Shown here piece by piece: positions 1-44,071 of a DNA stretch of 64,000 bases; position 1 is the stretch's first letter; every line of letters begins with the position of its first letter. A program made the position numbers and the translations under genes. The stretch lies in the NCBI GenBank assembly GCA_903901225.1, contig CAIUQE010000034.1, positions 17,391 to 81,390 of the forward strand, in the 5' to 3' direction. The notes under the pieces are model-generated. The model worked only from the letters and a program-made list of their open reading frames with translations. It had not been told where the DNA came from and searched no databases. Source of the stretch: Candidatus Omnitrophota bacterium. GTDB lineage: Bacteria; Omnitrophota; Gorgyraeia; Zapsychrales; Fredricksoniimonadaceae.

Positions 1-625
1 CTGAATGAACCTTCTCGGCTATATTATCCGAAAGAATAATATCGCCCCACCCATAAGAACTGAACGGCATCAACCTTCCCTCAAGCCCGATGAATTTTTT
101 GCCCTTAAGGTAATGGTTTGTCTTTTGATAATCACGGAACAGATCAATAAATCCTTTGAGGGCGGCGTCGCTCACGCTGAAAACCTGTATGACAGTATTT
201 TCCATGATACGATCATCCCTCATGCTGACGCAAAAAGGACTGCCCTTCCATTTGAAAAAGATCGTTGCGCGTGACCATACCGCCTCATAAATTCCCGGCA
301 TGACCTCTAAATCACGAAAAAGAGGATAAGAAACCCGCGGTTCGCTGTATCTCTCGCTCTCATAATTACCCTCTTCAAGTGTCTCAGCCTGCTCGGAAAG
401 TATCTTCTTCAAGCAGTAAACAGTATTGTTCAACAATATCCCGCTGATCTTCTGCTCATTGATCCGAAGGGTCGCAAGCCGGTCGCGTGACATGGCAAAA
501 TGCCTTGCCAATGCCTGCTGCTTCTCATCATATTCCCTGACTTCATCGTACTGGATCCTGGCGGTTACATAGCGTTCAAACCCCCGATCGATCCAATTCT
601 CAACAAATGCCTTTATCCCGTCCAT
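1..625 (-). CDS. hypothetical protein, 3'-truncated by the window edge (208+ aa; ATG at 625-623)
   Basis: I translated the minus strand by hand from the ATG at 625 down to nt 1 and found no stop. It is not in the ORF track because it has no stop inside the window. It overlaps and is more protein-like than the plus-strand ORF at 5..274. It has no recognisable family. The C-terminal part, ending KFIGLEGRLMPFSSYGWGDIIL, could precede a P-loop domain. Confidence 0.4.
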   Translation of the reverse strand, partial: MDGIKAFVENWIDRGFERYVTARIQYDEVREYDEKQQALARHFAMSRDRLATLRINEQKISGILLNNTVYCLKKILSEQAETLEEGNYESERYSEPRVSYPLFRDLEVMPGIYEAVWSRATIFFKWKGSPFCVSMRDDRIMENTVIQVFSVSDAALKGFIDLFRDYQKTNHYLKGKKFIGLEGRLMPFSSYGWGDIILSDNIAEKVHS

Positions 626-698
626 GCCAACCCCCCTGTCTTTGTATTTCTACAAGCATAACAGGGGGTGGCGACAGCATTGTGTCGCGGATATAAAC

Positions 699-735
699 AA
701 AAAGCCGGACAGCATTTTGTGCCGTCCGGCTAGCA
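699..735 (-). terminator. rho-independent terminator downstream of the 792..1385 gene
   Basis: Read on the minus strand this is a GCCGGAC..GTCCGGC hairpin followed by TTTTTGTTTATA. It sits 60 nt past the stop of the 792..1385 CDS. Confidence 0.55.
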
Positions 736-791
736 GAAAGAAAATATTAAAGTTTATAGTTTAACCTTATTGCCCTTAATTAGAACATGAA

Positions 792-1385
792 TCAGATCGC
801 CCTAACATTTGCTTCTATTTCATGTAAGAACGCCGACACAATAGGGAAATTGTTCAAAGTATCCTTAACTTGCCCGTCATTTAGAAAATGCTCGAAAAAT
901 TCTTGAGAATTAATATGCGGCATATGCCTGCTGAAAAAGTCTACAACTTCATCGACAAATAGTTTTGCCGCCGATACTGAATTCTCTTCAATATAACGGT
1001 CGCTCACGACATGATCTTGCAAAGGCACCTGGATAAGCAACAAGGGATTCTGATTGTGCGGTCCGAGTCCACACCAGCCAAACTTAGGATATCTCGTTAA
1101 ATCTCGAAATCTTCTATAATCCTGTGGATAGTATGTGAACATTATTTGATCGCTAGCAACAGTAATGAACATGGAGAAAATAAACCATGTTTTCGTCTGT
1201 TCGTCATCAAATAACCCAACTGCGCGCCTCCAGGATTCTGCGTCGAAGAAAGAATCCCCCGGATTAGTGGCATTCGTACCTGGAACAAAACTTATTCTTT
1301 TAAAATCATTTCGAAATTCCTCCAAATAGTATCCCCTAATGTCGTTTGGCATCCTATTCTCCATTTTATTTTGCTGGGCTCTCAT
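792..1385 (-). CDS. hypothetical protein (197 aa)
   Basis: Intact ORF in the low-GC island with no recognisable motifs. Confidence 0.5.
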   Translation of the reverse strand: MRAQQNKMENRMPNDIRGYYLEEFRNDFKRISFVPGTNATNPGDSFFDAESWRRAVGLFDDEQTKTWFIFSMFITVASDQIMFTYYPQDYRRFRDLTRYPKFGWCGLGPHNQNPLLLIQVPLQDHVVSDRYIEENSVSAAKLFVDEVVDFFSRHMPHINSQEFFEHFLNDGQVKDTLNNFPIVSAFLHEIEANVRAI

Positions 1386-1441
1386 ATACTTTTCAACATT
1401 CTACCTTCAGCCTACCTTTATCTCAAGAATCAAATATCAAC

Positions 1442-2014
1442 TCAATGTTTCTTATTCCTGTTCGCATGCGATCCTACGCTAAGAAGTAAATACACGGCGA
1501 TAAAACCCACCGTGATCACAAAACCGAGAACAATTTGGAACAAGTTGATAATAAATGACTCACACGCGTTCTTTGTCCAGCGCGTTGTCCTCCCAAAAGG
1601 CAGGCAGCACATGGCCAAAGTAACAAGCGTTGATATTATAGGACAACCCGGCCAGGTTTTATTGGACGGCTCCAGCTTTAAAGAACAAATCGTTAGATCG
1701 GAATGTCCAAAACAACCGTTCAACCACATACATCCCACAATTAACCATATCCCCACATAAATGAAAACATTGCTCCAGGCAAACAACGGATAATCGTACA
1801 GTTCCCTTACCCTCTCCTTGTAACTATAAATCCCCCAACTTAACAACACCCAGACAACCACGCAGCCGACAAATATAAGCGTCCCTTCCCAGGTAACACC
1901 AAGCATCGTCAATTCCTTCACAATGCTCCAGTTCATCACCCAGTTTGATATTTGCCCTAAGTAGCCCTGTGCATGGATCGTGCCCATAAACAAATACCGC
2001 CCTTTTCCTAACAT
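1442..2014 (-). CDS. hypothetical integral membrane protein (about 4 TM segments)
   Basis: Several hydrophobic helices, e.g. TLIFVGCVVVWVLLSWGIY and IVLGFVITVGFIAVYLLL. The true start is uncertain. Confidence 0.4.
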   Translation of the reverse strand: MLGKGRYLFMGTIHAQGYLGQISNWVMNWSIVKELTMLGVTWEGTLIFVGCVVVWVLLSWGIYSYKERVRELYDYPLFAWSNVFIYVGIWLIVGCMWLNGCFGHSDLTICSLKLEPSNKTWPGCPIISTLVTLAMCCLPFGRTTRWTKNACESFIINLFQIVLGFVITVGFIAVYLLLSVGSHANRNKKH

Positions 2015-2051
2015 TACCTACGACTCATTCTCTAAACCATCCCGACAATTG

Positions 2052-2438
2052 CTATGAAACAATCCCTTCAATGATCAAGGGGCTCCCCTTGTTCTCAGGC
2101 AGGCAACTTTTATCCGGAAAAAAAGTGATCATTTCGGGGCAACAAACACCGACAACATTCTTTTTCAGGCCGCTCCACTTCACAAGATAAGCAGGGATCG
2201 GGATCCTCATGAAACCATGCTTCTTTAAATCGATTTCATTGGTCCCTTTAATTAACGTGTCCAAAAGGTCGCTTGCGGCCTTACTCCCCAACTGCTGTCG
2301 CAACTTCTTCCCCATTTGGAGCCATTCTTTCTTGGGAAACATATAAAGCCCCGCCCTCTTTCCTCTAATTAGGAAAACTTTCTCAAACTTGTTCTTTTGT
2401 AAGAAGTCTTTTAGCTTCGCATTGATGACAATGTTCAT
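2052..2438 (-). CDS. MraZ-like (duplicated SpoVT/AbrB-type) putative DNA-binding protein
   Basis: Two-half architecture resembling MraZ: FLIRGKRAGLYMFPKKEW and ...KKHGFMRIPIPAYLVKWSGL. Its stop overlaps the phosphatase gene by 4 nt (ATGA). Confidence 0.35.
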   Translation of the reverse strand: MNIVINAKLKDFLQKNKFEKVFLIRGKRAGLYMFPKKEWLQMGKKLRQQLGSKAASDLLDTLIKGTNEIDLKKHGFMRIPIPAYLVKWSGLKKNVVGVCCPEMITFFPDKSCLPENKGSPLIIEGIVS

Positions 2439-2887
2439 ATAGCGCTTTCCTTAGACAAAAACCTCACCGCCGCACCGGTTCGATCTCTTCCGGCACTACA
2501 ATGAACCAGCACAGGCTTGGGCAAACCTCGAAATGCCTCCAGCACTCCCCGCGATTCTTCCGGTGATAAAGCCGGCGACTTATGATCCCGCACAGGAATA
2601 TGCACCACATCAAAACCTTTCTTTCTGTAATAAGCAACAAGCCCTTCCGTTACATCATAAAACTTGAGTTGCTCGTCATCGAGGAGGCATATAATTGACC
2701 TTATTCCGCTCTCTTGAATTGGCTCAAGCCATCGATCAACCTCCGCCTGCCCGATCCCCTGCTTCTTTGGATATCCAGGCCGCAAACTTCTAGCTAACAC
2801 ACCTTCTTTTACCCATTCAATCCCAAAACCAATACTTTCCCTTACCATGAGAGCCTCCTTATTAACTGGATAGATCATAAAGCACAA
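2435..2887 (-). CDS. protein-tyrosine / dual-specificity phosphatase family protein
   Basis: CX5R catalytic P-loop VHCSAGRDRTG. Confidence 0.7.
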   Translation of the reverse strand: MCFMIYPVNKEALMVRESIGFGIEWVKEGVLARSLRPGYPKKQGIGQAEVDRWLEPIQESGIRSIICLLDDEQLKFYDVTEGLVAYYRKKGFDVVHIPVRDHKSPALSPEESRGVLEAFRGLPKPVLVHCSAGRDRTGAAVRFLSKESAI

Positions 2888-2898
2888 AAGCGACGACC

Positions 2899-3171
2899 TT
2901 ATGTCGCACCCCTGGCAGTTTCAGGATATTTCCTGAATAAATACAGCATTCCTAACGTCAAGACCAGGTTAGCCACGCCGCTTGCGATAAATACAGGCTC
3001 CCTGATGGCGATCGCCCGGATCAGATAACAGGCTATTGCGACGAACAATATCTGATATGTCATCACGCTTAACCCTTTCGTTGACCGCTCTCTGACGGAT
3101 TTAACCAACTGCGGGATCGATGTCAGCATGCCAAGAACCATCCCAACCCATCCTATTGCCTCAGTCCACAT
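2899..3171 (-). CDS. SemiSWEET / PQ-loop (MtN3-like) small transporter
   Basis: 90 aa with three TM helices and a PQ motif in TM1 (LTSIPQLVKS). Confidence 0.6.
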   Translation of the reverse strand: MWTEAIGWVGMVLGMLTSIPQLVKSVRERSTKGLSVMTYQILFVAIACYLIRAIAIREPVFIASGVANLVLTLGMLYLFRKYPETARGAT

Positions 3172-3254
3172 ACCTCGCCTTTCTTTCGTTTAACGTCTTT
3201 ACTTCCTGTGACAAGGATACAACAATGTGGCGACATCATTATGTCGCGTTAAAA

Positions 3255-3290
3255 TAAAAAAGCCGGACAGCATTTTGTGCCGTCCAGCTT
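3255..3290 (-). terminator. rho-independent terminator downstream of the yhaV-like gene (second copy of the repeated hairpin element)
   Basis: AAAAAAGCCGGACAGCATTTTGTGCCGTCCAGCT. On the minus strand this is a hairpin followed by a T-run. Confidence 0.5.
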
Positions 3291-3365
3291 GATGATTCAG
3301 TTGAAAACAATACTATCTTCTATGCCATCAACTTTCAAATCCGCCTTACCCGCGATCCTAACGCA

Positions 3366-3818
3366 TCAATACTGGTAGCGCCGGATCCATTTCTGAATAG
3401 CAGGATCTTGAGGATCGTGGGAAGTCTTTCCGCCTCTGACCATCTGCTTAAATTCCTCATAAGGATCATTCCCACCCCCCTGCTTCCTCAAATGATCTTT
3501 ATCGTTAACATATAGATAAATGATAATGCCAGGTTTGTTCGAGAAGCAAAACATGATCCTGTACCGCTGCAACCCCTGTTTGTACCTTCTGTACTTCCTA
3601 AGATCACCGGAAAGCACGTATTCAGGCCTGTTGGGATCTTCTGGAATGATCTCTACCGTGGCCCTTCTGATCCTTGCAGCCAGTTTTACCGTCTCATGCT
3701 GGGAAAATTCATCCTTTGAAAGAGTGGCATGTAATTTCTTTACCTGCTCTTTCAGCTTGCCGATCCGCAGGGCAAATAACTCATGGCATTTGAGATAATA
3801 CTTACTCATCTTCCGCAT
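3366..3818 (-). CDS. yhaV: type II toxin-antitoxin system YhaV-family toxin
   Basis: Clear similarity to E. coli YhaV as I recall its sequence. RYRIMFCFSNKPGIIIYLYVNDKDHLRKQGGGNDPYEEFKQMVRGG matches RYRLFFRYSEKEKVIILGWMNDENTLRTYGKKTDAYTVFSKMLKRG. Confidence 0.75.
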   Translation of the reverse strand: MRKMSKYYLKCHELFALRIGKLKEQVKKLHATLSKDEFSQHETVKLAARIRRATVEIIPEDPNRPEYVLSGDLRKYRRYKQGLQRYRIMFCFSNKPGIIIYLYVNDKDHLRKQGGGNDPYEEFKQMVRGGKTSHDPQDPAIQKWIRRYQY

Positions 3819-5082
3819 CCACGCCTTTTAACAACATATCCCACTCTTTATCCCAGACCTTGTGCATGTCCTGCAACTTATGGGGATTCTTTAAAGAGTC
3901 CTCCACCAATGCTTTAATGAACGTCTTGAACTCAGGTTCTGATTCAATGTTTTCCAGCGTGTTCTTGGACACCATGATCAGACGGTCTTTATCATACTTA
4001 ATTATGATCTCAGTATTACCCGACCCGACGAACTCTTTGGGAAGATCTATCGCGCAGCTTCCACACTCCTTCAAATATCCATCCACCATCGCCCTGATCT
4101 CAGCCTTGAATGGCGCCGGCTCCAGGACCGTCAAACACGGGATCCAATGCATGATCAGGTGTTTGATCTCCTCGGGATGTGCCGGAAACGTTGCGATCAC
4201 CATAGAACCGTCAGAGCATTCCTCAACGGTCTTCTGAAGCGGGAAGAAACAACACGACTTGAAATATGGAACAACTTCCGGCGCGACGCGGATCAGGACG
4301 CGATCACCGCGCTTTTCGTCAAACCAGATATTCACACTCTCATCCAGGATCTTGTTGATATCGAGCTGCGGGCTGAAATAATCATCTTCCAGGTTTTGGA
4401 CATCCCTGATCCGGTCGACACGGTACTTCTGGATCTGCTTCTCCCCGTTCTTTATGGCGATCAAATACCAGAAGCCGCCGTAAAACGCGAGCTTGAGCGG
4501 TTCAAGATAATATTCTTTTTCGACCTGGGCCGCGTTGATGTATTTCATCCGGATGCGGTTGCTTTCAATGATAGCGGCCTGAAGAAAGCCGACCTCGGTC
4601 GTCGCCGGCAAAGGCAACTGCTGGGCTGACACCTTCACATAAAACGGCGAATCGAGCTTCTTCATGGTCACGCGCGAAAAAAGGTCCTTGAAAGAATTTT
4701 CAAATGTCTGACCCAGATCCGTGGCCATTTCGAACAGGAACGACATGAGTGACGCCTGTTCCTGGGTCAGCGAAAATTTGCGCAGCGTATACCCGGCAAG
4801 GAACGAATACCTGCCTTTATCCGGCCCGAGAATAGGGATCCCCGCTTCTTTAAGCACGGTCAGGTCACGTTCGATCGTGCGCTGGACAACATCGAATTCC
4901 TTAACAAGATGCTCAATTGAAACGGAATTGCCTTGATCAAGGACTGAAAGGATGGCAATACGGCGCGCGGCAGCCTTCTTTTGAGATTCCGGCATCTTTT
5001 TCTCAGCGGACCTCTTGAAGGTTACAGTTTTTTTCTCACGACGTGTCCGAGCCTTCTTCACGGCCTTCTTTTTTACCGGCAT
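3802..5082 (-). CDS. HTH-WYL-WCX transcriptional regulator fused in-frame to a PrlF-like (SpoVT/AbrB) antitoxin domain
   Basis: HTH at IAILSVLDQGNSVSIEHLVKEFDVVQRTIERDL and WYL motif FYGGFWYLIAIKNGEKQIQKYRVDRIRDV. The C-terminal 95 aa (nt 3802-4089) resemble PrlF (FIKALVEDSLKNPHKL...LLKGVDAEDE vs FLRFLDADIQNNPQK...LVAGMDVNIDDEIGDDE). The likely start is the ATG at 5082-5080, 2 nt after the DUF2779 stop. The ORF track extends it to 5151. Confidence 0.7.
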   Translation of the reverse strand: MPVKKKAVKKARTRREKKTVTFKRSAEKKMPESQKKAAARRIAILSVLDQGNSVSIEHLVKEFDVVQRTIERDLTVLKEAGIPILGPDKGRYSFLAGYTLRKFSLTQEQASLMSFLFEMATDLGQTFENSFKDLFSRVTMKKLDSPFYVKVSAQQLPLPATTEVGFLQAAIIESNRIRMKYINAAQVEKEYYLEPLKLAFYGGFWYLIAIKNGEKQIQKYRVDRIRDVQNLEDDYFSPQLDINKILDESVNIWFDEKRGDRVLIRVAPEVVPYFKSCCFFPLQKTVEECSDGSMVIATFPAHPEEIKHLIMHWIPCLTVLEPAPFKAEIRAMVDGYLKECGSCAIDLPKEFVGSGNTEIIIKYDKDRLIMVSKNTLENIESEPEFKTFIKALVEDSLKNPHKLQDMHKVWDKEWDMLLKGVDAEDE

Positions 5083-5084
5083 AG

Positions 5085-6647
5085 TCAACCTTTCGTAATG
5101 ACCCTTAACGCAGTCAGGATATCTACCATTCCACCTGTGTCCAACCCGCAATATGCCTCCAGATCAGCATAAACTTTGGCACGATCAATCGGGTCAACGC
5201 CCGCGCCGTAAGTTACCCTGGAATATTCTGACGTGGCCTGCCCGCCGTCGGCAATGGGCATTCCCTCATAACCCTTGCCTGTTAAAGCCGGCAGGACCTT
5301 CTTGAGCGACGCGGAGCCGTGCTCATCAGGGTGGTAATAATAGAACTTCTGGAATGGCACCAGAAGATCGACCAGACGGAGGTTGATATCTTCACAGCAC
5401 TGCCGGTACGCGGGGAACTGCTCGCCTATCTCCTTCAAACGCAATTTCTCAAAGGACTGGTTGTACGCCACCACATCCCCTTCCTGCCCCATGCAGGCGC
5501 TTAAAGCTTTGATGAATTCCAGGCGAGGATCATCGGCCTTTTTATGCAGAAAAGCATGATGTTCAACCGGCCCGCCGGGCGTTCTTTGAATATGCACAGA
5601 GAACTGGAACGGGATCTGCTGGTACGGCCGCGTGCCATTAAAGCGCGGCAGGACCTCGAAGATCGTCTCAAAATCCATAAAGTAGAGCGGGTAGCGCAAA
5701 CTTTTGATGAACGTATTGATCTCATCAAGTTCCACATGCGGTTGTTGCGTTATCGCGCAAACACGCTGGATCTGCTGGTTGGCCGACAGTTTAACGTTAT
5801 CAGGAATATCTTTAAGGCGTAAAACACCCTGGTCGATAAGGTCAAACCCTTTGGACTTCCCCCGATACAGCTCAAGCACGTGCTCCCTGGGAAGGAACGC
5901 CCAGCAGATCGGGATCATCTGGCACTCGTAAGGATCGCGGCAATGCTCCCTTATCGATATGTGCGGACACGCGGGCATGTCGATGATATCGAGAAACCCC
6001 TTCACCAACGACGGTGTCACACCGTAGAACGGCTTGATCTCTTCCGTGACATCAAGCAGGGTAAATAATTCATGGGGGTTAATATCCCCGTCACGCACAT
6101 ACGTGTTATTCACGTGCATCAAATAGCAGCGGCCGATCCTGATCCCGGCCTGTTCGTAACAATAACGCTGGAACGCGATGTCCTGTAAATAGACATCCTT
6201 GCACTTCGTCGAGCATTTCACCTCGATCACGTCCCAGACGCCGGGCTTTTCAGGTGAAGGCCGCAGGATATCCGCGCGGGCATAAAGCCGCCCCGCCTTG
6301 ATCCCAGCCTCATAGATGGGCTTCGGGTCTTTTGACGCTAATAGCGCCTGCGTTTCCGCCAGGTTCTTCAAAAAATCATCTTCCTGGACATGAACCCCTC
6401 CCGGAAAGCACCTGGTCGCCAATTCACTGACGAGATGGCCCGTATCGAAAACTTTCTGCAGCGCGGCGGTCGGTTCGGGAATTTCTAGCGGGGCATTGCA
6501 ACGCGTCCAGAGCAATTTAGGGCACTGCAAGCCGTTGAGGAATTTGGACTTGGTAAGAAGCTTCGGGTCCCTGCGGACTTTTGTTTCGATCAAGAACTCC
6601 AGCAAACCGTCGCTGCGTTCTTCCTGATAAAGGTTCTCTTCACTCAT
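5085..6647 (-). CDS. DUF2779-family protein (PD-(D/E)xK nuclease-like N-terminus and a DxE exonuclease-like motif)
   Basis: VWDVIEVKCSTK has a D..EVK motif. YFMDFETIFE is the DUF2779 signature. Length is 520 aa. Confidence 0.65.
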   Translation of the reverse strand: MSEENLYQEERSDGLLEFLIETKVRRDPKLLTKSKFLNGLQCPKLLWTRCNAPLEIPEPTAALQKVFDTGHLVSELATRCFPGGVHVQEDDFLKNLAETQALLASKDPKPIYEAGIKAGRLYARADILRPSPEKPGVWDVIEVKCSTKCKDVYLQDIAFQRYCYEQAGIRIGRCYLMHVNNTYVRDGDINPHELFTLLDVTEEIKPFYGVTPSLVKGFLDIIDMPACPHISIREHCRDPYECQMIPICWAFLPREHVLELYRGKSKGFDLIDQGVLRLKDIPDNVKLSANQQIQRVCAITQQPHVELDEINTFIKSLRYPLYFMDFETIFEVLPRFNGTRPYQQIPFQFSVHIQRTPGGPVEHHAFLHKKADDPRLEFIKALSACMGQEGDVVAYNQSFEKLRLKEIGEQFPAYRQCCEDINLRLVDLLVPFQKFYYYHPDEHGSASLKKVLPALTGKGYEGMPIADGGQATSEYSRVTYGAGVDPIDRAKVYADLEAYCGLDTGGMVDILTALRVITKG

Positions 6648-7257
6648 GGTGATCAGACCTCCACGTCATTGTTTTAAAGTATAGCCGATGCGAAACACTT
6701 TTGATAATGAAAACTTCTGCCGCATCCCTTACCCGACAGCTTCTTCACGGATATCCTCAAAGCGCATATACTGCCCCTGAAAACGCAGCATTACAGCGCC
6801 CAATGGACCATTGCGGTGTTTTCTGACACAAACCTGCATTTTTCCAAGATCAGCGACCGTGGCGCCTTAATTGAGCGGGATATTTCACTGATCTCCTGCT
6901 GACGGTCCTTTTTACCTTCCAATATAAAAGGTAGCTACGACAGCGTTATGTCGCTATTTTATAAATCAGTCTTAACCCCTCCTCCTGTTATCCCCGTATT
7001 GTAAATCTTTCATATTATGGGGACACCCGAAACTTTGATCTCTTGATGACGAGAATCCGAGCTGAAATCGTCGTCGCCCCACCGGGCGGACACAAGGTCC
7101 GCCCCTACGCTCACAATAATCATCCTCTCGATTTGCTAAAGATTTACGCAAAAACGCGGGGGAGGGCTTCATTAAGGCCATCGCTTCAATAAACTTTCAC
7201 ACCCCGGAAGCATGGAAATTCTTGTGGATTTGACGGCGTGTTGTAAAATACAGTCCT

Positions 7258-9692: not shown

Positions 9693-11693
9693 TCAAGGAA
9701 GCGCGCTTTTACAGGCCCGCAGATACATTAGCAGGCTGATCGCCCCCACCAGGGCCATGGTCGCCGCCGCGCCCCACAACGGCACCAGAAAAAGCCCGGC
9801 GCACAACGCGCCGCAGCCGCCGCCAATAACATCCGCCGCGTAAACTTTGCCCGCCTGCCCCTGGCCCGCCATCGCCGTATACAAACCGAACTGCAGGCCC
9901 GCCGATATCCCGGCAAGGACCGGAAAGACCCAGAAGAGCACCGGCCAGCCCAGGCCCGCGATGAACAACCCCGCGAGCAAGGCCTGCGACCCCGGCCCCG
10001 CGTGAACGGCCCATCTTGACGCTATCCGGGAGAAAATCCTTGTGCCGAGGAACGCTCCCAGCATGAACCCCGCGGTCAAAAGCCCCACCGCCGCGTAGGC
10101 ATACCCGAAGAACGCCTGGACGGCAAAGATCACAGCGACCTGAAAAACCATTTGTGTAAAACCCATGAGGCCAGCCCCAACGAACGGTACCGCCGCCGGA
10201 TAGGCCAGGGAGGCCGCGATCAAGGCGCACGGCAGGACCAGCCACAGGAATTTCGGCGCCTGTTCCACGGCTTCAACAAGCTTTGAAAAAGCACCGCCAT
10301 AGTTGCTCGTCATGAACAGGAAAGAACGTTCGACCGTCACAGGCCGTTCATCCGTACCCACTTCGCTCGCCCCGGCGAGCCAGCGCAGGGCCGCGTCCAC
10401 GCGCGCGGGGCTCATGCGCTCCTTCAGATAATACCCCCGCATGAACTGCGTCGTGATCTTGCGTTCCCGCAAACGCCCGACAAGAAGATCCGCCGTCACG
10501 GGCGGGATATCGTCCCCGGCGATGAATGTCATCTTTTCACCCGGGATCACCCGCACATCCCGGAAGACCGCCGACAAGGTGGCCATAACCGAACGGGCGT
10601 ACGCCATGCCCTGGCGGTTGAGAGAATCCTCGGAAGAACTGATCGTCACGGACACCAGGCCGCCGCGGCTCAAATGACGCCGGGCCAGAGCAAAAAACTC
10701 CCGCGTGAAGAACCGGCCCGTCAACAGGTCGGCGGGGTCGGAACCATTCACCGCGATGACATCATAAAGGTCGCGCGCGTGATCAAGAAAGGCGCGCGGA
10801 TCGCCGGTGAGAACCCTCAGGCGCGGGTCACGAATATCAGCGATATGATCCCGCTCCAGGGCGACAGCCTCGGGGTCAATCTCGGCATAATCAAGTTGTT
10901 CCACAGGATGCTTTAGCACTTGTGCCCCGGCCTGCGACACGCCACCGCCGACGAGAAACACCCGGCGCGGGGCGGGATGGACAAGAACCCCGGCATGGAC
11001 CTCTTCGGCCGCAAGCGCATCGGGCGCGGTGAAAAGGTGTTTCCCGTTCTCAAAGAGGCTCTTCTGCGCGCCGCGCTCAACGACAACAAGATGGCCGTAA
11101 TGCGACTGGCGCGCCGTCACAACATGGTACCCCGGCCAGGCGGCCTGTTCGGCCCATTGCGCCACACCGGGTGGTAACGGAGAAAAAATGACAAAGGTCA
11201 TCAAGAGCCCGCCCGCCACAAATCCTAAAGCTTCACCACCATAAACCCTGACTGCCGCCGCGTCGCTCCCCCCCGCTCTGGCCAATATCGCGAAAGCGCC
11301 ACCCAACACCATCGTCAGCGGCAACAAAAGCCCGGCCGCGGCCACCGCCACGATCCCCGGCTGCGCAATACTGCCCAACGGGATACCCAGCGCCGGCTTG
11401 AGCAAACCCGCTCCGAGAACAGTCAATGGAAGCAAAAATACCGATGAGATCAAGAGGAGGAACGCGACACGAAGGTCAGAGGAGCGAACAATAAAACTTC
11501 CCGCGGCAATGCCCGCCAGCCAGGTCCCGAGGACAACGGCAACAACAAATTCGTTGCCGCTGAAGGCCGACATCAGCGCGCGGATCAGGATGACCTGGGC
11601 GAGCGCGGATATGAACCCCAGCACTCCCGCGGCTCCGGCGCCCCACAGGGCACCGGAAGACGGCCTGGATCCGGTCATGCCATTTCTTTTCAT
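9693..11693 (-). CDS. fused MFS / spermidine synthase-family protein (polyamine aminopropyltransferase-like)
   Basis: Multi-TM N- and C-terminal regions flank a spermidine-synthase-like core (VFLVGGGVSQAGAQVLKHP...DVIAVNGSDP). Confidence 0.7.
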   Translation of the reverse strand: MKRNGMTGSRPSSGALWGAGAAGVLGFISALAQVILIRALMSAFSGNEFVVAVVLGTWLAGIAAGSFIVRSSDLRVAFLLLISSVFLLPLTVLGAGLLKPALGIPLGSIAQPGIVAVAAAGLLLPLTMVLGGAFAILARAGGSDAAAVRVYGGEALGFVAGGLLMTFVIFSPLPPGVAQWAEQAAWPGYHVVTARQSHYGHLVVVERGAQKSLFENGKHLFTAPDALAAEEVHAGVLVHPAPRRVFLVGGGVSQAGAQVLKHPVEQLDYAEIDPEAVALERDHIADIRDPRLRVLTGDPRAFLDHARDLYDVIAVNGSDPADLLTGRFFTREFFALARRHLSRGGLVSVTISSSEDSLNRQGMAYARSVMATLSAVFRDVRVIPGEKMTFIAGDDIPPVTADLLVGRLRERKITTQFMRGYYLKERMSPARVDAALRWLAGASEVGTDERPVTVERSFLFMTSNYGGAFSKLVEAVEQAPKFLWLVLPCALIAASLAYPAAVPFVGAGLMGFTQMVFQVAVIFAVQAFFGYAYAAVGLLTAGFMLGAFLGTRIFSRIASRWAVHAGPGSQALLAGLFIAGLGWPVLFWVFPVLAGISAGLQFGLYTAMAGQGQAGKVYAADVIGGGCGALCAGLFLVPLWGAAATMALVGAISLLMYLRACKSALP

Positions 11694-12166
11694 TTCAATC
11701 TTAAAAAAGAACTGCTAAAACGGAAAAAGACATAAACAGCATAAGGCCCGGCGATAATGCCCGCGATGAGCGGCCATGAGAACTCCCGCGTAAAAAATCC
11801 CGCGACGAACATCGGGCCGGAAATGATCACGCCCCACAAAGGGCCGAAGACGACGAAATAAAACCACTCGCGCGCCAGCACTCGCTCATGTTCGCTGCGG
11901 AAGAATAAACTTGAGACCAGATAAGCGGCCCGCAAGGACGTGACGACAATATAGACGACCCGGGTCACAAGGTAGCAGCCGTAAAGCCCGAACATGATGA
12001 CAAAATTCCGGGGCCATAGCTGTTTGTCGTCAAAAGAGCCTGCCAGGAACAATGGAAGGTACATCGCGGCCGCCCAGAAAAGCCCGAACAGCCAGAACAT
12101 GACCCATTCCGTGGCAGCCAATTTCCTGAACCAGGCAATAATATCGCTATGTATCCGGCTGTTCAT
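11690..12166 (-). CDS. hypothetical membrane protein
   Basis: 158 aa with 4 predicted TM helices. It overlaps the downstream gene by 4 nt. Confidence 0.5.
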   Translation of the reverse strand: MNSRIHSDIIAWFRKLAATEWVMFWLFGLFWAAAMYLPLFLAGSFDDKQLWPRNFVIMFGLYGCYLVTRVVYIVVTSLRAAYLVSSLFFRSEHERVLAREWFYFVVFGPLWGVIISGPMFVAGFFTREFSWPLIAGIIAGPYAVYVFFRFSSSFLRLK

Positions 12167-13898: not shown

Positions 13899-14599
13899 CG
13901 TCCGACCAGGGAATAAAAATGTTCAGGGACCGGCGCATTGAACGTCATGCGTTCCTTTGTTTTGGGATGCGGGAAAGAGATCGCGTAGGAGTGCAGTGCA
14001 AGAAAAGGATACTTGGCGCCAGGCCTTCCATACTTCGTATCACCGACGAGCGGATGCCCGTGATGCGCCATGTGGACACGGATCTGGTTCTTGCGCCCGG
14101 TCAGAAGGTCAATTTCAAGCAGGCTGTATCTGTCCGTCGCCTTGATAACTTTATACGCCGTGCGAGCGAGCTTGCCGTCTTCCGCTTCTTCCAGGGAATG
14201 CACGCGGTACTTGTCATCCTCGACCAGATAGCTTTCGATCAACCCCTCGGGCTTGGCCAGGCGCCCGTGCACGACGGCATAATATGTTTTTTTGGTATCA
14301 GGCCAGTTGTTCTTGAGGGTCTGCTGGATCGTTTCACTCTTCGCAAAAATGAGCACACCTGACGTTTCCCGGTCCAGCCGGTGCACGACGTAAACACAAC
14401 GGTGCGAACGGGAATTGCCCTTGCGCACGTAAAGATTAAGAAGCTGGTGAACGGTCCGCTCACGCTCATACATCGCGGCGACGGTGAGAAGGCCAGCCGC
14501 CTTGTTGCCAACGATGATGTCATCGTCATCATAAAGAATGTGAAAACCTTTGGGCTGATGCTTTCCCGAGACAGGTTTATTGGTATGCCGCGCCATCAT
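13889..14599 (-). CDS. RluA-family pseudouridine synthase
   Basis: HRLDRETSGVLIFAKS catalytic motif. Its start overlaps the stop of giant gene 1. Confidence 0.8.
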   Translation of the reverse strand: MMARHTNKPVSGKHQPKGFHILYDDDDIIVGNKAAGLLTVAAMYERERTVHQLLNLYVRKGNSRSHRCVYVVHRLDRETSGVLIFAKSETIQQTLKNNWPDTKKTYYAVVHGRLAKPEGLIESYLVEDDKYRVHSLEEAEDGKLARTAYKVIKATDRYSLLEIDLLTGRKNQIRVHMAHHGHPLVGDTKYGRPGAKYPFLALHSYAISFPHPKTKERMTFNAPVPEHFYSLVGRWA

Positions 14600-17500
14600 T
14601 TTCCTTCCATTACCGCCGCTCCGGCGCCGTTGAACAAAGGCAGCCCCGCCGCCGGACGTATGTTCAAAATAACCGGCACCAGGCCGTCGATGTGGATATT
14701 GTCCAGGTCCTGCTGGGCTACCGGCAAAGGCACCCCGGCGCCGTCGCGCTTGATCTGCATGTCGAGATTGGAGGCGGCGAAATCGATACCGCCTGGCTGA
14801 ACAACTTTCTCTGCCATGTCAGAAGACTCTGAATTTGATCCAGTTACTTTGCGTTTCGATGTTGTCGCGGCCTGATCAGGAAACCGGCTTATATCCTCTA
14901 TCGGTCGTTCCGATTTAATTAAAAGCCAGTCGTCTCCCCTGAATGATATCCCATCAATCCCATAAATGTAAGCCACAACATCAATCAAATAAGGTGCCAA
15001 ATGCCATAAATTATGATCAAATTCATCGTTATCAAAAACTTTAAACATCTCATTGCGAATTAAAGATACGGAACTATCAGACACGACATCCCCATCAAAT
15101 GAAATCTTGACCCAGGAATCTGATTCCTGTAAAAATTTTAACAATGCCCTGTTCCCATTATTAACAAAAGTCCAAATGGATCTTCCATTAAAATAAGATT
15201 CCGCCTTACCCCACGAAAATCCATCACGACAAATATGCTCGACATCTTCGGGCGATTGAGTAACTCGCTTATGATTAACCTCATGGAACAATTCAAGAAT
15301 TTTTCTTTCTCTACCAGAATAATACGATCCCATCTCCAGGACAAACTTTGCCAGCTTCCTGCTTTGAATTAACGCCTGCCGTAGCGTTCTTTGAGAACCT
15401 TCTTTTAACGGATCATCCAGTGTAGGAAAAACATACGGCATTTCAGCGATAGCTCGACCCAACAATCCCGGCATCAGCTCCATACCAACAGAATTGAACA
15501 ATGTAAAATTGTTATTCTGCGTATCATTCCGCAACCAAACCTCTTCTCCTCCCGGGGCAACAAAGCGCAGATTGAGCTCAATCTGAGCGAAGGCTGATGG
15601 AGGGGTAAATCTTGCTTCCAGAATATAATTACCATCCCCGTCACGCTCATCCGTGGCCGTCAATGCCAACGGCAGATCGCTCTCGGGTGCAGACCAGTCA
15701 TGATAACTGATGCCAACCTCGTCAATATCAAAATGGCTAAAACGGACAAAACCTTTTATGGCCCTAAGATACCTGTCGAGTCGCTCGCGGGACATCTGTT
15801 TGTCATTCAGCGCCATGGCGAACCTGAGGGCAACCTGCCCCTGTTTGTCGACAACGACCTCGGATCCACTCGGCTGCTGGATATGCCCGGCCCAGACTAA
15901 CTTCACCCCAGATAGATCACCCGCCGCATCTGTTACGGCCTGGCTTTGATCCGGAACATTCTTTTTCAATTCAGCCACACGATATTCAAGATATTCCGGC
16001 AACGTCATGGAAACCGCGGGAAAATCAATGTGCTCATATTTTTTGCGCAATGTTAATCCCATTTTCATTTGAGCCACCAGCGACATCGCGTCCCCCATCG
16101 ACGCCGCGCCCCGCCCGAAAGGGTTCGCCTGAAAGAACCACCATTCATATTCGGCAAGCGCCGACAACCGATTATCCATCCTCAACGCATCATCCATGAT
16201 CCGATCCCATAATTGAGTCAAGTGTTCCATAATAGCAGGGATATCCGTATCGTTAGCGTTATAAAGCAGGATCGCGTCTCCCTGGTCATCCATCTTCTGC
16301 ACATACATTACGCCCGTCGACCCGATCTCCTGCTCATGAGAATAACGCCTGAAATCAGATTCAGTGTACGATTTCACAAACCCGGGATGGCTTAACCGCT
16401 GGTGCAGCATTTTATACAGATCGCCATACCTGTTAGAACCCCGGATGCGCGTGGCCGGAATAAGATCATCTGGCAACCCCAGGAACCTTGTTTGAGAATC
16501 GATACGAAGATCCTCGGCCACCCTGCCTTCACTCGGACGCACGCCCGTTTCAGCCGCCGTCAACCGCGCCTGAAAAACTGAATGCAATATCCTTATATGC
16601 CTTTGTTCGGGCCTTTTGAACAAAGAAACGACCATGGCGGCCATGATCTTGCCGAAACGGTAATTAGTATCAAATCCGGAATTTTTAGGGGCACTCATGA
16701 TCTTGCGGACCTTCCTCTCCAGAAGATCATAATATTGGAACTCAGGAACAGCTACAGCCCCAAGCCCTTCGAAACCACGCCATGTTCTTATGCCAACATC
16801 CTGCGCCAGGTCCTTCGTCGCCGCAGCCTGGCCGGACCAGTTCATCCCGTTTGCCGGCTCTAGATCCGGAACATTCTTTTTCAGTTCAGCTACGCGATAT
16901 TCAAGATATTCCGGCAACGTCATGGATAACGCGCGGAAATCAAGGTTCTCGTAACCAACACGTATCGATAACCCCATCTTCAGCTGGGCCACCATCGACA
17001 TCGCGTCTCCCAAAGCCGCCCCGCCCCTCCCGAAAGGATTCGCCTGGAAGAACCACCATTCATATTCAGGGAGCACTGACAAACGACGGTCCATACCCAG
17101 CGTGGCATCCATCATCGTATCCCATAGTTCAGTCAAATGCCGCATAATGACAGGAACATCCGGATCTCTGGCGCTATAGATCCGGATCGACGTGCCAAAA
17201 GAATCAATGATCTGTTGATACATCCCGCCCGTTGATCCAATTTTCTGGTCACGGAAATATCGTACGCCATTGGTAATATAATGATTTTCTGAAAATCCTT
17301 TTTCCAGCAGTCGTTGATGTACCATTTGATACAATTTTTGATACCTTCCGGAATTCCGAACAGAGATGTATGGCGTACCGTCGATCCATTCTAAAGTCAA
17401 ACCTGAAAGTCTTGCCTCTGAAACATTACGAAAAACTCCCACAACTGTATAGTCATCAATACTCAGCTGTTCAGAAGCCACTGACAGGCGTGCCTTAACC

Positions 17501-26507: not shown

Positions 26508-27854
26508 TCAAAACTGGGTGCGGTACTTGAGAAAAACGCGGTCGTCCGGAGTTGGGCGGGCTGATGTCGATGGCTCTGTACCCTGTTGCAAGGGGAGGAT
26601 CTCTTTCTGCGCGCCGAGCGTGACCTTGTCCGTCACCCGGTATTCACCCTCCAACGTCTGCGTCAGCGCGCGCTGATGCGCCTCATCCGGAGTGTTGGCC
26701 ACAGCCACGCCATAACCAACATCGAGTTTGTCAGAAAGATCCCTGTTAAAGGTCACACCCTGTTTCGTCTGATCAAGCTTGTAAGATATGCCGGAAAATC
26801 CGAAAAATCCGGCCACCCGTGACCCCGCCCCGCCAAAAAAGAAATAGTCGATGAAATCACCGGCCAGCTCGGGCGTCATCTTGCGGCCTCCCGCGGAAAC
26901 CCCCGCGAGGTTCCACTTCTTTCCCGTCGTCAGCATCAGCAAAAGCTGCTCTTCGGGCAAAGGGGGATCGGATACAAGGCGCACATCCGGCTTCGAGCGC
27001 GTGCCTTTGGCGGAAATATCAATATGAACGCGCGCGACCGTCGCTGTCGCGTGGACATCAAGCTCAGGATTTGCCGGATCACCGGAAAAGGTCAGCCGGC
27101 TTTCACCCAGGTGCAGAAGGGCACGCGGCGCCTGCAATATCCCGCCGTGGATATCCAGTGTACCGTACGTTCCCCACAACCCGCTCGTACGCGAAAAGTA
27201 CAGCGCACAACTGACAGGCGCGTCACGCAATAGAAACCCGCCCTTGGGAATATGCCCGACCACGAACACACCCGCGAGCTCTGGTTTCTCCAACGTCCCG
27301 GTCAATTGCAGATCAAGGCTCTTCAATTCTCCTTTTAACGGCGGAGGGTTCCTGAAATGCCGGATGACCTTCCGCAGGACGTCAAGATCAAGGCTGGAAG
27401 AATAAATTTCCGCGTGATAACGCCCCCGACTCAACCTGCCGTTGAGGACCACGGGATCGGCTCCCGGAGCAAGGATACGGGCATTGTCGAGCATGACATC
27501 AAGGCCGTTGAACGCCGCCCGCGCCAGGCTCACGTCCAGTTCCTGCACGCGCACGATACTTCCCGCCGGAAGGAATGACGGCGCGATAGCCTGCAGATTG
27601 AAGATCCGCACCCCGCGCCATAAGGAGCCCTCGCAACGTTCATAGGCCATCTGCTCCGGGCCTAAAAAATACGTTGATGCCGCGCGCAGTGAAACCCTGG
27701 CACCCTGGGGCATAACGAGGAAGAAGGCGACAGCCCCGGCGAGCACGACGAAAGCAACAAGCAACGTGAGCAGCGTGAACCCGATGAGCCGGAACACGAA
27801 GGGCCTGGCCACGTCAGCGCCTGATCTTTCCCAGGAGCCGCAAAAGGCCGTCAA
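26508..27854 (-). CDS. TamB/AsmA-like protein (DUF490-type C-terminal domain) with an N-terminal TM anchor
   Basis: N-terminal hydrophobic anchor. C-terminal LVSDPPLPEEQLLLMLTTGKKW motif, characteristic of the TamB DUF490 domain. At 448 aa it is much shorter than canonical TamB. Confidence 0.5.
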   Translation of the reverse strand: MTAFCGSWERSGADVARPFVFRLIGFTLLTLLVAFVVLAGAVAFFLVMPQGARVSLRAASTYFLGPEQMAYERCEGSLWRGVRIFNLQAIAPSFLPAGSIVRVQELDVSLARAAFNGLDVMLDNARILAPGADPVVLNGRLSRGRYHAEIYSSSLDLDVLRKVIRHFRNPPPLKGELKSLDLQLTGTLEKPELAGVFVVGHIPKGGFLLRDAPVSCALYFSRTSGLWGTYGTLDIHGGILQAPRALLHLGESRLTFSGDPANPELDVHATATVARVHIDISAKGTRSKPDVRLVSDPPLPEEQLLLMLTTGKKWNLAGVSAGGRKMTPELAGDFIDYFFFGGAGSRVAGFFGFSGISYKLDQTKQGVTFNRDLSDKLDVGYGVAVANTPDEAHQRALTQTLEGEYRVTDKVTLGAQKEILPLQQGTEPSTSARPTPDDRVFLKYRTQF

Positions 27855-41606: not shown

Positions 41607-42938
41607 CTATCTTATGAACCGCACCGCGCGGACCCTTTCCAGAAGAGAACCCTTGGACGTGCCGGAACCCGGCGAAAGATCGCTCACGACCACGCGCCCC
41701 AGCGCGACGAACACCTCGCGGCCGCCCTTCATTTCACGGTAACCTGACGTCGCGTGAATGGCATAAAGCCCGCCGTCAACCTCCCCAAGGTAAAGCATGA
41801 CATGCCCCTTGAGGCACAACAGCGTCGCCCCCGCGAGCGCCTGGCGGGCAATGGCCTCCGCCTTATCCGGCGCCTTAAATGAAATATCGAACTCCGCGAT
41901 GGGCAGGCCCGCTCTCGCCTGCTGGGCGGAATTGCGCGGCAGGTCAAACCCCATGGTCGCGAAAACCATGCGGATGAATCGCGAACAATCCTGCCCGCCG
42001 TTGCTGTCACCCCAGCCGTAGGGCGCGTCGAGCAGTTTGAACGCCTGGGTGATCGCGGCGCGGGGAGTATACGGAAGATCCCCCTCGGCCACATCGTTGC
42101 GCGCGATAAAAGCGCTGACCCATCTGGCCCGGCCGTCAGCACGGCGCAACGCGTAAACGACCTCAACCGCCTGCGGCGTCTGTCCCTTGAGCGCGAACCT
42201 GTCGCCCATCCGGGCCGTAGCCGCGGCGAACCACAACCCCGGGCCTAAGCAGACACGCGCGCGCGGCGCCGTGATAACAACAAAGATCTTGGGCGCAAGG
42301 ATGGCCCGCCAGGCATCTTCATCCGTCAACGCGATGTCGCGGGCGCGGACCCAGCCCGAGGAAACACCGTCCTTGATGAAGAACCACCGGTTATCCGCGG
42401 TCTCATGCAGGACAACGACGGGCGTGCCCGCGCTTATCCCGCTGTCCTGGACCTCGTCGAACCCGGTGTCGTTGCGTTGGGCATAAAGCGGCTCTTCCGT
42501 CGGGACACAACGTATGCGCGTGAAAGTTGTTGCCACGGCATAACGCGTGACGAGCCAGGGGCCAAGCCGGGAAAAGTTCATGTTCTGCCGCAGCGGCGTA
42601 AAGAACCCGTCGCCCGCCACGGACCCGTCGCGGCGGAAAAGCCTGTTCTGACGCAGATGCTCACCCGCCTTGAAAGCCTCGGCCCTGAGCTCGACCAAAG
42701 GGATCTTATGGGGGTACGCGGCAAGGTCATCCGTAAGCCGGTTGGCCACGAGGCCCTTGTTGAAGGCCGTGATCTCAGCCGGGGCCATCAGCACCTTGTC
42801 CGGCGCCGAATGCCGGTCAAGCCATAACCGGGGCGAACGCATCGCGGCCGTGACGCGGGGCAATGTGCCGGCGCACGCCGGGTCGACGATCGCCACGCCA
42901 ACACTGATCAGGAAAAGAAACGACAACATTGTCCGCAT
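41607..42938 (-). CDS. secreted NlpC/P60-family peptidoglycan hydrolase
   Basis: Signal peptide MRTMLSFLFLISVGVAIVDPACAG. DCSRFIRMVF catalytic Cys motif. The ORF track's extension to 43568 is high-GC read-through. Confidence 0.65.
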   Translation of the reverse strand: MRTMLSFLFLISVGVAIVDPACAGTLPRVTAAMRSPRLWLDRHSAPDKVLMAPAEITAFNKGLVANRLTDDLAAYPHKIPLVELRAEAFKAGEHLRQNRLFRRDGSVAGDGFFTPLRQNMNFSRLGPWLVTRYAVATTFTRIRCVPTEEPLYAQRNDTGFDEVQDSGISAGTPVVVLHETADNRWFFIKDGVSSGWVRARDIALTDEDAWRAILAPKIFVVITAPRARVCLGPGLWFAAATARMGDRFALKGQTPQAVEVVYALRRADGRARWVSAFIARNDVAEGDLPYTPRAAITQAFKLLDAPYGWGDSNGGQDCSRFIRMVFATMGFDLPRNSAQQARAGLPIAEFDISFKAPDKAEAIARQALAGATLLCLKGHVMLYLGEVDGGLYAIHATSGYREMKGGREVFVALGRVVVSDLSPGSGTSKGSLLERVRAVRFIR

Positions 42939-44071
42939 AGTATCCCCAGGTAAGTTCCAACGATATTGCCCAATATGGCCAGCAGGAGCCCGACCGATGC
43001 CAGGCCCGGCTGATAAACCTCGGCCACGACCGGCGCGGAAGCCACGCCGCCCACGTTCGCCTGGCTCGCCACCGCCACGAGAAAAAACGGCGCGCGCAGC
43101 AGCCAGGCGCCCGTTATCAAGAAAAACGCGTGCACCGCGACGATCACCCCGCCCGCGGCGATCAGGACCAGCGCGGAGCTGATGTTCGTCAGGCTCGCCT
43201 TCGCGCCAATGGCCGCCAGCACGAAATAAAGGATATAATAACCCAGCGCCGACGCTCCGGACTGTTCCAGGCGGCGCACGGGCGTCATCGACAGCGCGAG
43301 GCCCAGCAACGACACCAGCACGATCGTCCAGGCATAGGGAGAAATGACGTCTTTGACCAGCGGCAGCATCAGTGCCACCTGGCGCGCCAGCAGGCTTCCC
43401 ACTCCCGCGAACATCAGCACGAACGTCACGCCGCCCGCGCTCCAGCGCACCGGCGCCTGCTTTATCGCGGCCCGCGGCCCAAGCGCATCGATCACCTCCC
43501 GCCGGGAACGCAGCCAGCGGTCCATGACAGGCTGCAGCCCCGCCACGGCGATCAGCATGCCCATCCACACGTACGGCACGATGGTATCAACAACCACCAT
43601 GGGCGCGAAAATGCGGTCAGGCACACCGAAAGCCTCTTTCACCGCGATCATATTGGCGCTCCCGCCGGTCCAGGACGCCGACAAAGCGCCAAACCCGCTC
43701 CAGAAATCCCCGCCGACGGTATTTTTAAAGATACGGAAAGAAAGGACCGTGCCCGCCATGATGCCCAACGCCCCGATGAAGAACATGGCCACCGCCAGGG
43801 CACCCAGCCGCAGGATCGCTTTCAGGTCAACGGTTACAAGCAACAACAAAAGGCTCATGGGCAACAGGTGCGTCGTCACCCGGGAAAGTATCTTGGCCTG
43901 CGGGTCGATGATACCGCAGGTGGACAGGAGCATGGGCAGGAAATATATCCAGAAAACCGGGGGAAGGAAGTCGAACCACCGCCGCGTGCGCTCATGCCGG
44001 CTCAGGCCCAGGACAAGCGCTTCGACGGCCGCGAGAACGGCGATGATCAACAATGAACGCGCATCCATCAA
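42908..44071 (-). CDS. DUF819-family integral membrane protein
   Basis: 387 aa, polytopic. Confidence 0.5.
   Translation of the reverse strand: MMDARSLLIIAVLAAVEALVLGLSRHERTRRWFDFLPPVFWIYFLPMLLSTCGIIDPQAKILSRVTTHLLPMSLLLLLVTVDLKAILRLGALAVAMFFIGALGIMAGTVLSFRIFKNTVGGDFWSGFGALSASWTGGSANMIAVKEAFGVPDRIFAPMVVVDTIVPYVWMGMLIAVAGLQPVMDRWLRSRREVIDALGPRAAIKQAPVRWSAGGVTFVLMFAGVGSLLARQVALMLPLVKDVISPYAWTIVLVSLLGLALSMTPVRRLEQSGASALGYYILYFVLAAIGAKASLTNISSALVLIAAGGVIVAVHAFFLITGAWLLRAPFFLVAVASQANVGGVASAPVVAEVYQPGLASVGLLLAILGNIVGTYLGILCGQCCRFFS

Follow-up and report, generated by a model that had tools for sequence, protein, structure and literature searches.

Why do three of four large paralogous genes of a GC-rich bacterial chromosome carry AT-rich stretches between ends whose codon usage is close to that of their host? 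The question is raised by 64,000 nucleotides of chromosomal DNA (contig CAIUQE010000034.1, positions 17,391 to 81,390; the whole of this stretch is called the window) from an Omnitrophota bacterium that is uncultured and has a GC content of about 60%. The roughly 30 ordinary genes of the window have a GC content of 0.55-0.65 and a GC content at third codon positions (GC3) of 0.63-0.84; GC3 of the neighboring housekeeping genes is about 0.73. Four large paralogous genes, G1 to G4, deviate from this, their GC content being about 0.49-0.54. The explanation that we consider probable is that these genes encode members of a modular exported protein family, the middle part of which (the cargo) is exchanged by recombination, and that the AT-rich segments are recent imports of lower-GC origin.

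The four proteins are built to a common plan. A Sec-type signal peptide, cleaved between AxA and Q, is followed by an N module of about 340-380 amino acids (aa), a variable cargo, and a C module of about 55-65 aa. The N module is 46-66% identical among G1-G4 and ends in RKYF[SA]GG in all four; its alignment with 19 database members contains 58 invariant columns. The C module is present in all four genes and begins with GGID[FL], the complete pattern being GGID[FL]...PVI..I.P. The recognizable cargo consists of three repeats resembling the AvrB/XopAH effectors in G1 and a hydrolase domain of the HAD type in G3. The features are listed below by their position in the window. Internal repeats were detected by BLAST of sub-fragments, and z is the deviation of GC3 from a codon simulation described further on.

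14596..19686, minus strand: G1, 1696 aa, recognized by its open reading frame (ORF), by Pfam PF05394 (E = 1.2e-22, three stretches) and by paralogy of its N and C modules; the protein starts with the signal peptide and the N module and continues with three AvrB/XopAH-like repeats, a middle domain, the AT-rich cargo and the C module.
18661..19686, minus strand: G1 signal peptide and N module, ending at RKYFSGG (aa 336-342); GC3 0.65, z = -3.1.
15937..18534, minus strand: the three AvrB/XopAH-like repeats of G1 (aa 385-670, 675-941 and 980-1250), with about 49% mutual identity.
17197..17610, minus strand: AT-rich segment in repeat 2 of G1, inside an indel specific to the lineage of the window; GC3 0.36, z = -9.4.
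14782..15771, minus strand: AT-rich cargo of G1, the region flagged initially (aa 1306-1635); GC3 0.39, z = -12.4; its end is the exact start of the C module.
14599..14793, minus strand: G1 C module, GGIDF...IKRDGAGVPLP...GLVPVILNIRPA, at the extreme C-terminus; GC3 0.74, z = 0.0.
13950..15300, no strand: recent recombination tract with 96-100% DNA identity to a related species, compared to about 83% elsewhere.
19702..22170, minus strand: G2, 822 aa, with its N module at 21154-22170 and its C module at 19705-19863; the cargo between them is unique and contains no segment of low GC3.
22260..25886, minus strand: G3, 1208 aa (annotated in the source with 1197 aa), with its N module at 24753-25886 and its C module at 22263-22439; the order is N module, AT-rich segment 1, HAD domain, AT-rich segment 2, C module.
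23913..24677, minus strand: AT-rich segment 1 of G3 (aa 404-658), beginning 26 aa past the N module; GC3 0.43, z = -9.6.
23352..23894, minus strand: HAD-type hydrolase domain of G3 (aa 665-845), Pfam PF00702 with E = 3e-16; GC3 0.68, z = -1.2.
22461..23069, minus strand: AT-rich segment 2 of G3 (aa 940-1142), stopping 8 aa before the C module; GC3 0.34, z = -11.5.
49272..56699, minus strand: G4, 2475 aa; N module 55572-56699, an AT-rich unique segment, repeats, C module 49275-49469.
54312..55424, minus strand: AT-rich segment of G4 (aa 426-796), beginning 50 aa past the N module; GC3 0.45, z = -10.7.
About 50100-54212, minus strand: G4 repeats (aa ~830-2200), at least seven diverged repeats of about 190 aa with 28-41% identity and intermediate GC3, matching no known family.
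51321..51536, minus strand: short low-GC3 segment within the G4 repeats (aa 1722-1793), found by the segmentation described below; GC3 0.39.

The first-pass annotation, made from the sequence alone, had placed AT-rich stretches at about 14800-15560, 22290-23300 and 54300-55300. Sliding-window GC confirms a stretch at or near each of these positions. In 200-nucleotide windows the GC content drops to 0.32-0.38 at 14900-15300 and to 0.365-0.40 at 22500-23000, and in 500-nucleotide windows to 0.44-0.46 at 54000-55500. The range given for G3 does contain the AT-rich part, but it also takes in the C module of that gene, which is host-like. The minima of GC3 in windows of 100 codons are 0.33-0.38 in the segments of G1 and G3 and 0.44-0.48 in G4. 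Segmentation by a two-state hidden Markov model (HMM) on GC3 gives six low-GC3 segments (GC3 0.34-0.45), two each in G1, G3 and G4 and none in G2. Three of the six had thus been overlooked, namely 17197-17610, 23913-24677 and 51321-51536. When applied to the housekeeping genes, the same model put just 210 codons out of 10,874 into the low state, and these belong to a single gene. This gene, an NlpC/P60 and SH3 gene at 41607-43568, is the sole ORF of housekeeping type with such a stretch, which may reflect a wrongly placed GTG start, overlap with another frame or a true mosaic.

The AT-richness of the segments sits at synonymous sites, and amino-acid composition explains little of it. This was established by a simulation in which codons were redrawn from the housekeeping codon usage of the window while the amino-acid sequence was held fixed. 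The AT-rich segments have a GC content of 0.40-0.44, compared to an expected 0.52-0.55, and a GC3 of 0.37-0.46, compared to an expected 0.70-0.73 (z = -9.4 to -12.4). For the initially flagged segment of G1 the GC content is 0.41 versus 0.54 expected (z = -14) and GC3 is 0.37 versus 0.71 (z = -12). Because of this gap between observed and expected values, amino-acid composition is not the explanation. Tetranucleotide usage, corrected for base composition, also sets the AT-rich segments slightly apart from the host. Their correlation with it (r = 0.82) is lower than that of each of 200 size-matched host samples (0.90 +/- 0.03).

The conserved modules behave differently. The C modules show the GC3 expected of the host (z ~0), and the N modules nearly so (GC3 0.65-0.70, z = -1.4 to -3.1). 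The earlier description of the terminal modules as host-like therefore stands for synonymous composition, but the value of more than 60% GC given for them applies to part of the C modules (0.56-0.71) and not to the N modules (0.53-0.56). Likewise, the description of the cargo as AT-rich is correct for the six segments and does not extend to the rest. The HAD domain is host-like (z = -1.2), and intermediate values (z = -5 to -7 per segment) are found for the cargo of G2 and for the repeats of G1 (AvrB-like) and of G4, the pooled G4 repeat block of 1567 codons giving z = -12.9 at a GC3 of 0.60. Four of the six AT-rich segments lie within 0-50 aa of a module junction.

The history of the cargo was examined in a related species, represented by three assemblies, of which a syntenic contig of 16.5 kb (L084) was used for DNA comparison. 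The neighboring genes are kept in this species: a TamB-domain gene upstream, and genes for a pseudouridine synthase, a methyltransferase, an EamA protein and a spermidine-synthase-like protein downstream. In the window the TamB gene is followed by genes for proteins of 1208, 822 and 1696 aa (G3, G2 and G1) and then by the pseudouridine synthase gene, whereas in the relatives the three proteins have 2080, 1115 and 1377-1381 aa. The 2080-aa protein carries an acetyltransferase domain in addition to HAD. In the G2 slot the cargo of the relative, which is NUDIX-like by eye, has no similarity to that of G2, whereas the C modules of the two genes are 90% identical at the DNA level. Repeat 2 of G1, with its AT-rich segment, is absent from the orthologue, which has two repeats; the alignment gap extends from 17668 to 16769.

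Divergence along G1 is uneven. The synonymous divergence (dS) of housekeeping genes between the window and L084 is 0.52-0.69. The N module of G1 has a dS of 0.69, equal to this baseline, and the middle domain 0.58, but the value is 0.26 for AvrB repeat 1, 1.5 for repeat 3, 0.26 and 0.05 for the 5' and 3' parts of the AT-rich cargo, respectively, and 0.13 for the C module. Sliding identity outlines a tract of about 1.4 kb, from ~15300 to ~13950, in which lie the AT-rich core, the C module and the larger part of the pseudouridine synthase gene. The latter is an exception among the housekeeping genes, with a dS of 0.146, because it lies inside this tract. The ratio of nonsynonymous to synonymous divergence (dN/dS) is 0.41 for cargo compared to 0.10-0.12 for the modules.

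A third lineage, represented by contig L001, shares the AT-rich cargo of G1 (91-98% identical in DNA), again with a low GC3 of 0.38. The genes that come next encode pantothenate kinase, GroES and GroEL, and not pseudouridine synthase. Identity to the window falls to 73% inside the C module, with a breakpoint near 14730, and dS is 0.13 for the cargo compared to 0.84 for the C module. The C modules of G1 and G2, on the other hand, are 94% identical in DNA beside unrelated cargos, which suggests from the sequences that conversion between the paralogues may have occurred. The compositional mosaic, the differing cargo in orthologous slots, the uneven divergence of G1 and the breakpoints at the modules are direct observations, and they support the exchange of cargo between conserved modules. 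The original proposal that cargo had been acquired and grafted between native modules is thus upheld as far as the exchange is concerned, and for the origin of the AT-richness such an import is probable.

The modules belong to a large family. More than 1178 homologues of the N module were found, nearly all of the named ones in metagenome-assembled genomes of Candidatus Omnitrophota, and in GTDB representative genomes 581 stretches code for a relative, frequently more than one in the same genome. In 75 copies from related loci the C module forms the extreme C-terminus, with a median of 7 residues to the stop codon and the consensus GGIDLNxxNLxLQIKRDGxGVPLPxxQQDLxxIxIDGLVPVIxxIxPA. Both modules occur in subtypes, A and B, that are paired non-randomly: among 80 Omnitrophota loci (L003-L082) there are 43 A-A, 12 B-B and 5 B-A combinations of N and C modules and no A-B combination (Fisher p = 4e-9). 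This co-variation suggests that head and tail work together or that the same machinery recognizes both. Neither module has a match in Pfam or NCBIfam, and the searched passages of Omnitrophota papers do not describe such a family. It therefore appears to be an undescribed family, unannotated and spread across the phylum. None of the cargos of the window was found in the 80 related loci, although the C module was found in more than 50 of them.

Some of the cargo resembles known families. The HAD domain of G3 scores 60.7 bits with PF00702 (cut-off 26.4) and 34.4 bits with TIGR01509 (cut-off 29.4). In G1, all three repeats align with the C-terminal portion of the profile of the AvrB/XopAH type III effectors; the score with PF05394 is 81 bits (cut-off 23.2), but the profile is covered in part (best stretch 218-278 of 326), and the score with NF041403 is 79 bits, below the cut-off of 220. 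Unlike in the type III effectors, the domain is present as tandem repeats within a Sec-exported protein, and there are no type III secretion genes among the annotated genes of the window.

The AT-rich segments themselves matched nothing known in searches of Pfam, NCBIfam and PDB. The cargo of G3 had been called methyltransferase-like at first sight. A motif-I-like string, ILFVGVGRG, is visible in this cargo (22461-23300), but at E <= 1 the searches yielded neither a Pfam hit nor, in PDB, a match to a methyltransferase, so this assignment finds no backing. The AT-rich cargo of G1 (14839-15585) and the proteins P0124-P0126 form a small domain family with the motif MPYxPxWLD and conserved His, Gly..Trp and Tyr..Asp columns; the domain also occurs inside Omnitrophota proteins of other architectures, 849 to 3960 aa long. 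The predicted model of the G1 domain has a pLDDT of 59.5. A reading of the conserved His, Gly..Trp, Tyr and Asp columns as ADP-ribosyltransferase-like was dropped, as no match supported it.

Taken together, the following history would account for these data. The N and C modules would be inherited vertically with the genome, co-varying as matched subtypes of an exported scaffold. The cargo between them would be replaced, lengthened or shortened in frame by recombination, with crossovers in or beside the conserved modules; the modules, and repeats within the cargo, may act as homology arms. The AT-rich segments would be the newest imported and least ameliorated cassettes, derived from the generally lower-GC gene pool of the phylum. 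The flanking DNA at most of the 80 sampled loci has a GC content of 38-50%. The proteins are most likely exported effectors or surface proteins directed against other cells, in which the modules would serve export, sorting or delivery and the activity would come from the cargo, with its AvrB-like, HAD phosphatase and unassigned domains. We infer the low-GC donor, export beyond the inner membrane and the effector function; the effector or surface role is suggested by the signal peptide, the effector-like cargo and the lifestyle proposed for the phylum (PMC10066038; 10.1101/2023.11.21.568195).

Several findings weigh against this explanation. The first concerns the donor. A word-indexed search of 5.8 billion proteins with the joined AT-rich segments of G3 and G4 returned G3 itself only, and viral contigs and JGI metagenome contigs contained no relatives of these cargos. 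With the G1 cargo the same word-indexed search gave one close copy only, and HMMER, run exhaustively against 1.84 billion representatives, yielded a single close cluster and, at 27-30% identity, three further relatives. The only close relatives are those of the third lineage (L001/P0121) and of the P0123 cluster. The three distant ones sit in other large Omnitrophota proteins, which appear to have no N module; their genomes have a GC content of about 0.48-0.49, and where DNA is available the domain has a GC3 of about 0.50 and not 0.35. The viral and JGI metagenome contigs held neither donor nor homologue of the cargo, and no low-GC donor was found in any of these searches, because the AT-rich cargos have almost no relatives. 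Carriage by phages or mobile elements was considered and abandoned: there were no viral hits, and no transposase or integrase was noticed adjoining the four genes. Second, no secretion machinery was identified in the window. Third, the recent tract at 13950-15300 represents an exchange between close relatives and not the first arrival of AT-rich DNA. Since it includes a host-like housekeeping gene, its donor was a close relative, and the tract leaves the AT-richness unexplained. Finally, an AT shift of the cargo is found throughout the family. In 78 of 83 family genes from other genomes the GC3 of the cargo is lower than that of the N module (mean difference -0.086, p = 1e-14), and this holds in genomes of every GC level, even low-GC ones. 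The GC3 of the N module equals that of the flanks, and the GC3 of the cargo follows that of the host (rho 0.76). Such an offset fits a systematic bias as well as import: either imported or accessory DNA is generally AT-richer, or the cargo drifts towards AT in place.

Drift in place is the rival that survives best; we regard it as clearly less likely than import, but it retains considerable weight. Lineage-specific and fast-evolving cargo would rarely recombine and, under weak codon selection, would decay to an AT-rich mutational equilibrium. It would escape GC-biased gene conversion or selection, while the modules, recombining often, would stay host-like. Besides the family-wide offset, the missing donor and the higher dN/dS of the cargo fit this view. 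However, synonymous sites would have to change almost to saturation before GC3 fell from about 0.73 to 0.34-0.39, yet the cargos are missing from orthologous slots at a dS of only 0.5-0.7, and the AT-rich core of G1 is nearly identical between lineages (dS 0.05). This combination of patchy distribution and low dS speaks against slow decay. The boundaries of the segments at the module junctions are sharp, other cargo in the same genes, such as the HAD domain, has remained host-like, and the contrast between host and lowest-GC3 cargo window, about 0.40, exceeds the maximum of 0.365 in the 76 family genes with flank estimates.

A second possibility, which is already largely refuted and to which we give very little weight, is that the genes are classical polymorphic toxin-immunity loci of the Rhs, CdiA or MafB type, which exchange an AT-rich toxin tip at the C-terminus as one unit with its immunity gene. 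The modular architecture with variable, compositionally deviant segments beside conserved parts would agree with this, and a phosphatase domain associated with polymorphic toxins as well as a YhaV toxin gene are encoded elsewhere in the window. In G1-G4, however, the extreme C-terminus is conserved and the variable part is internal. Furthermore, no small immunity-like gene follows any of the four. The gene downstream of G1, pseudouridine synthase, overlaps the G1 stop codon; directly after G3 and G2 comes the next member of the family, and after G4 a GGDEF/EAL gene. Pfam and NCBIfam searches gave no hits to Rhs/YD, haemagglutinin-repeat, PT-TG or other trafficking domains.

The window stems from metagenome assemblies, and the AT-rich pieces could in principle be reads of other organisms joined in assembly or binning. 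A 1.4-kb scaffold, L002 (ENA ERZ18667000), is 100% identical to the window over 1084 nucleotides (18761-19844, the G2 C-terminus and the G1 N module) and then switches at 18761 into an HU (Bac_DNA_binding) gene; it is either a chimeric assembly at the repeated module or a real structural variant. An artefact is nevertheless rejected as hardly credible, given the agreement of independent assemblies. Ten public metagenomic contigs (up to 110 kb), which stem from several samples and were built by several assemblers (ENA, NCBI, Logan), carry G3 with 100% identity, so that it is not a one-off assembly product. In L084 and L001, which are independent assemblies, and in the P0123 cluster with its three members, the AT-rich cargo of G1 occupies the same position and is in frame, and all four reading frames are uninterrupted. 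As for a Lys/Asn/Ile-rich amino-acid composition with host-like codon choice as the sole cause, the slightly lower GC at codon positions 1 and 2 of the AT-rich segments (0.41-0.46 versus 0.47-0.49 in the N modules) would agree with it, but the codon simulation leaves this explanation practically no chance.

The composition signal and the logic of exchange are of a familiar kind, and what appears to be new is the protein family. The Rhs elements of E. coli reportedly consist of a GC-rich core with AT-rich core extensions, as described by Hill and colleagues in the 1990s. Large exported proteins with a conserved host-like or GC-rich part and variable AT-rich segments, encoded by several paralogues per genome, are thus common to Rhs or polymorphic toxins and to the present family. 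In polymorphic toxin systems new variants are produced when recombination puts another variable domain in place of the old one (Zhang et al. 2012, PMC3482391), as seems to happen here. In G1-G4, unlike in those systems, both ends are conserved around an internal variable part and no immunity gene follows. There are also no shell-forming YD/Rhs repeats, Rhs core or known trafficking domains (no Pfam or NCBIfam hit), and the recognizable cargo is of enzyme or effector type (AvrB-like, HAD) and not a nuclease or deaminase toxin.

By analogy, the closest layout to conserved ends around a swappable middle is that of the MARTX toxins of Vibrio and its relatives. In these toxins a mosaic of effector domains is enclosed by conserved N- and C-terminal arms, and domains are gained or lost by recombination (PMC4468845, citing Kwak et al. 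2011). In both cases the modular center differs between close relatives through in-frame recombination, and the copy number of a domain varies (here two versus three AvrB-like repeats). However, G1-G4 belong to another phylum and to an unrelated protein family. They lack RTX or glycine-rich repeats and the autoprocessing cysteine protease domain (Peptidase_C80; no Pfam or NCBIfam hit), they carry a Sec signal peptide and not a type I secretion signal, and their C module comprises no more than some 60 aa.

The substrates of type IX secretion and other proteins with a C-terminal tag share with G1-G4 the N-terminal Sec signal and a short conserved domain at the extreme C-terminus. Unlike them, G1-G4 hit no model of a C-terminal or sorting domain (e.g. 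TIGR04183; NCBIfam and Pfam, E <= 0.1), and possess an additional N module of 340-380 aa that co-varies with the tag; no type IX genes were identified. Within the phylum itself, giant ORFs have been reported, the 'Archaeovorins' and dockerin-type giants, by West-Roberts et al. (2023 preprint, 10.1101/2023.11.21.568195) and Seymour et al. (2023, PMC10066038). They are large, poorly annotated, exported proteins of mixed enzyme content, proposed to act against host or prey cells. The distant relatives of the G1 cargo domain lie inside such large proteins. G1-G4, with 0.8-2.5 thousand aa, do not reach the size of more than 6,700 aa given there, and they are defined by the pair of N and C modules, which the searched passages of those papers do not mention.

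The remainder of the window offers several further observations. Nearly all of its genes lie on the minus strand, and the ordinary ones include hydrogenase- or complex-I-like subunits, transporters, a DEAD-box helicase, RNase II and PPK2. The TamB-domain gene (translocation and assembly module; 26508-27854) lies directly upstream of the G3-G2-G1 array, in the window as well as in each of the three related assemblies. Positions 1-6650 form a low-GC island (0.41-0.47 GC). Its accessory genes code for a WYL/HTH regulator, a DUF2779 protein, a toxin of the YhaV type and a small DSP-PTPase belonging to a type that is associated with polymorphic toxins. The corresponding slot of the related species, beside a Fer4/FMN-binding gene, is occupied by another member of the N/C-module family instead; its product has at least 1817 aa and a GGIDL-type C module at the end, and it has no similarity to the window sequence. 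A small lineage-specific insertion of about 450 nucleotides (11693-12142), which the related species lacks at its syntenic locus, separates the EamA gene from the spermidine-synthase-like one. It holds an ORF of 158 aa (11690-12166, GC 0.52) without a Pfam hit.

Omnitrophota are uncultured and very small, and are thought to live on or prey upon other cells. A family of more than 1000 members, present in multiple copies and with an exchanged enzymatic middle, is a concrete candidate for the effector repertoire of the phylum. It is also a natural system for the study of in-frame cassette exchange, the recombination history of which is testable in syntenic relatives, and the compositional mosaic provides a simple marker, based on sequence only, of the newest cargo. 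More tentatively, the N module and C-terminal tag may constitute an undescribed export or delivery scaffold common to the phylum, with a co-evolving head and tail that double as recombination arms, and the AT-rich segments may be recent loans from a pool shared by these putatively predatory or parasitic nanobacteria. If this were true, any enzyme cassette placed between head and tail would become an exported effector.

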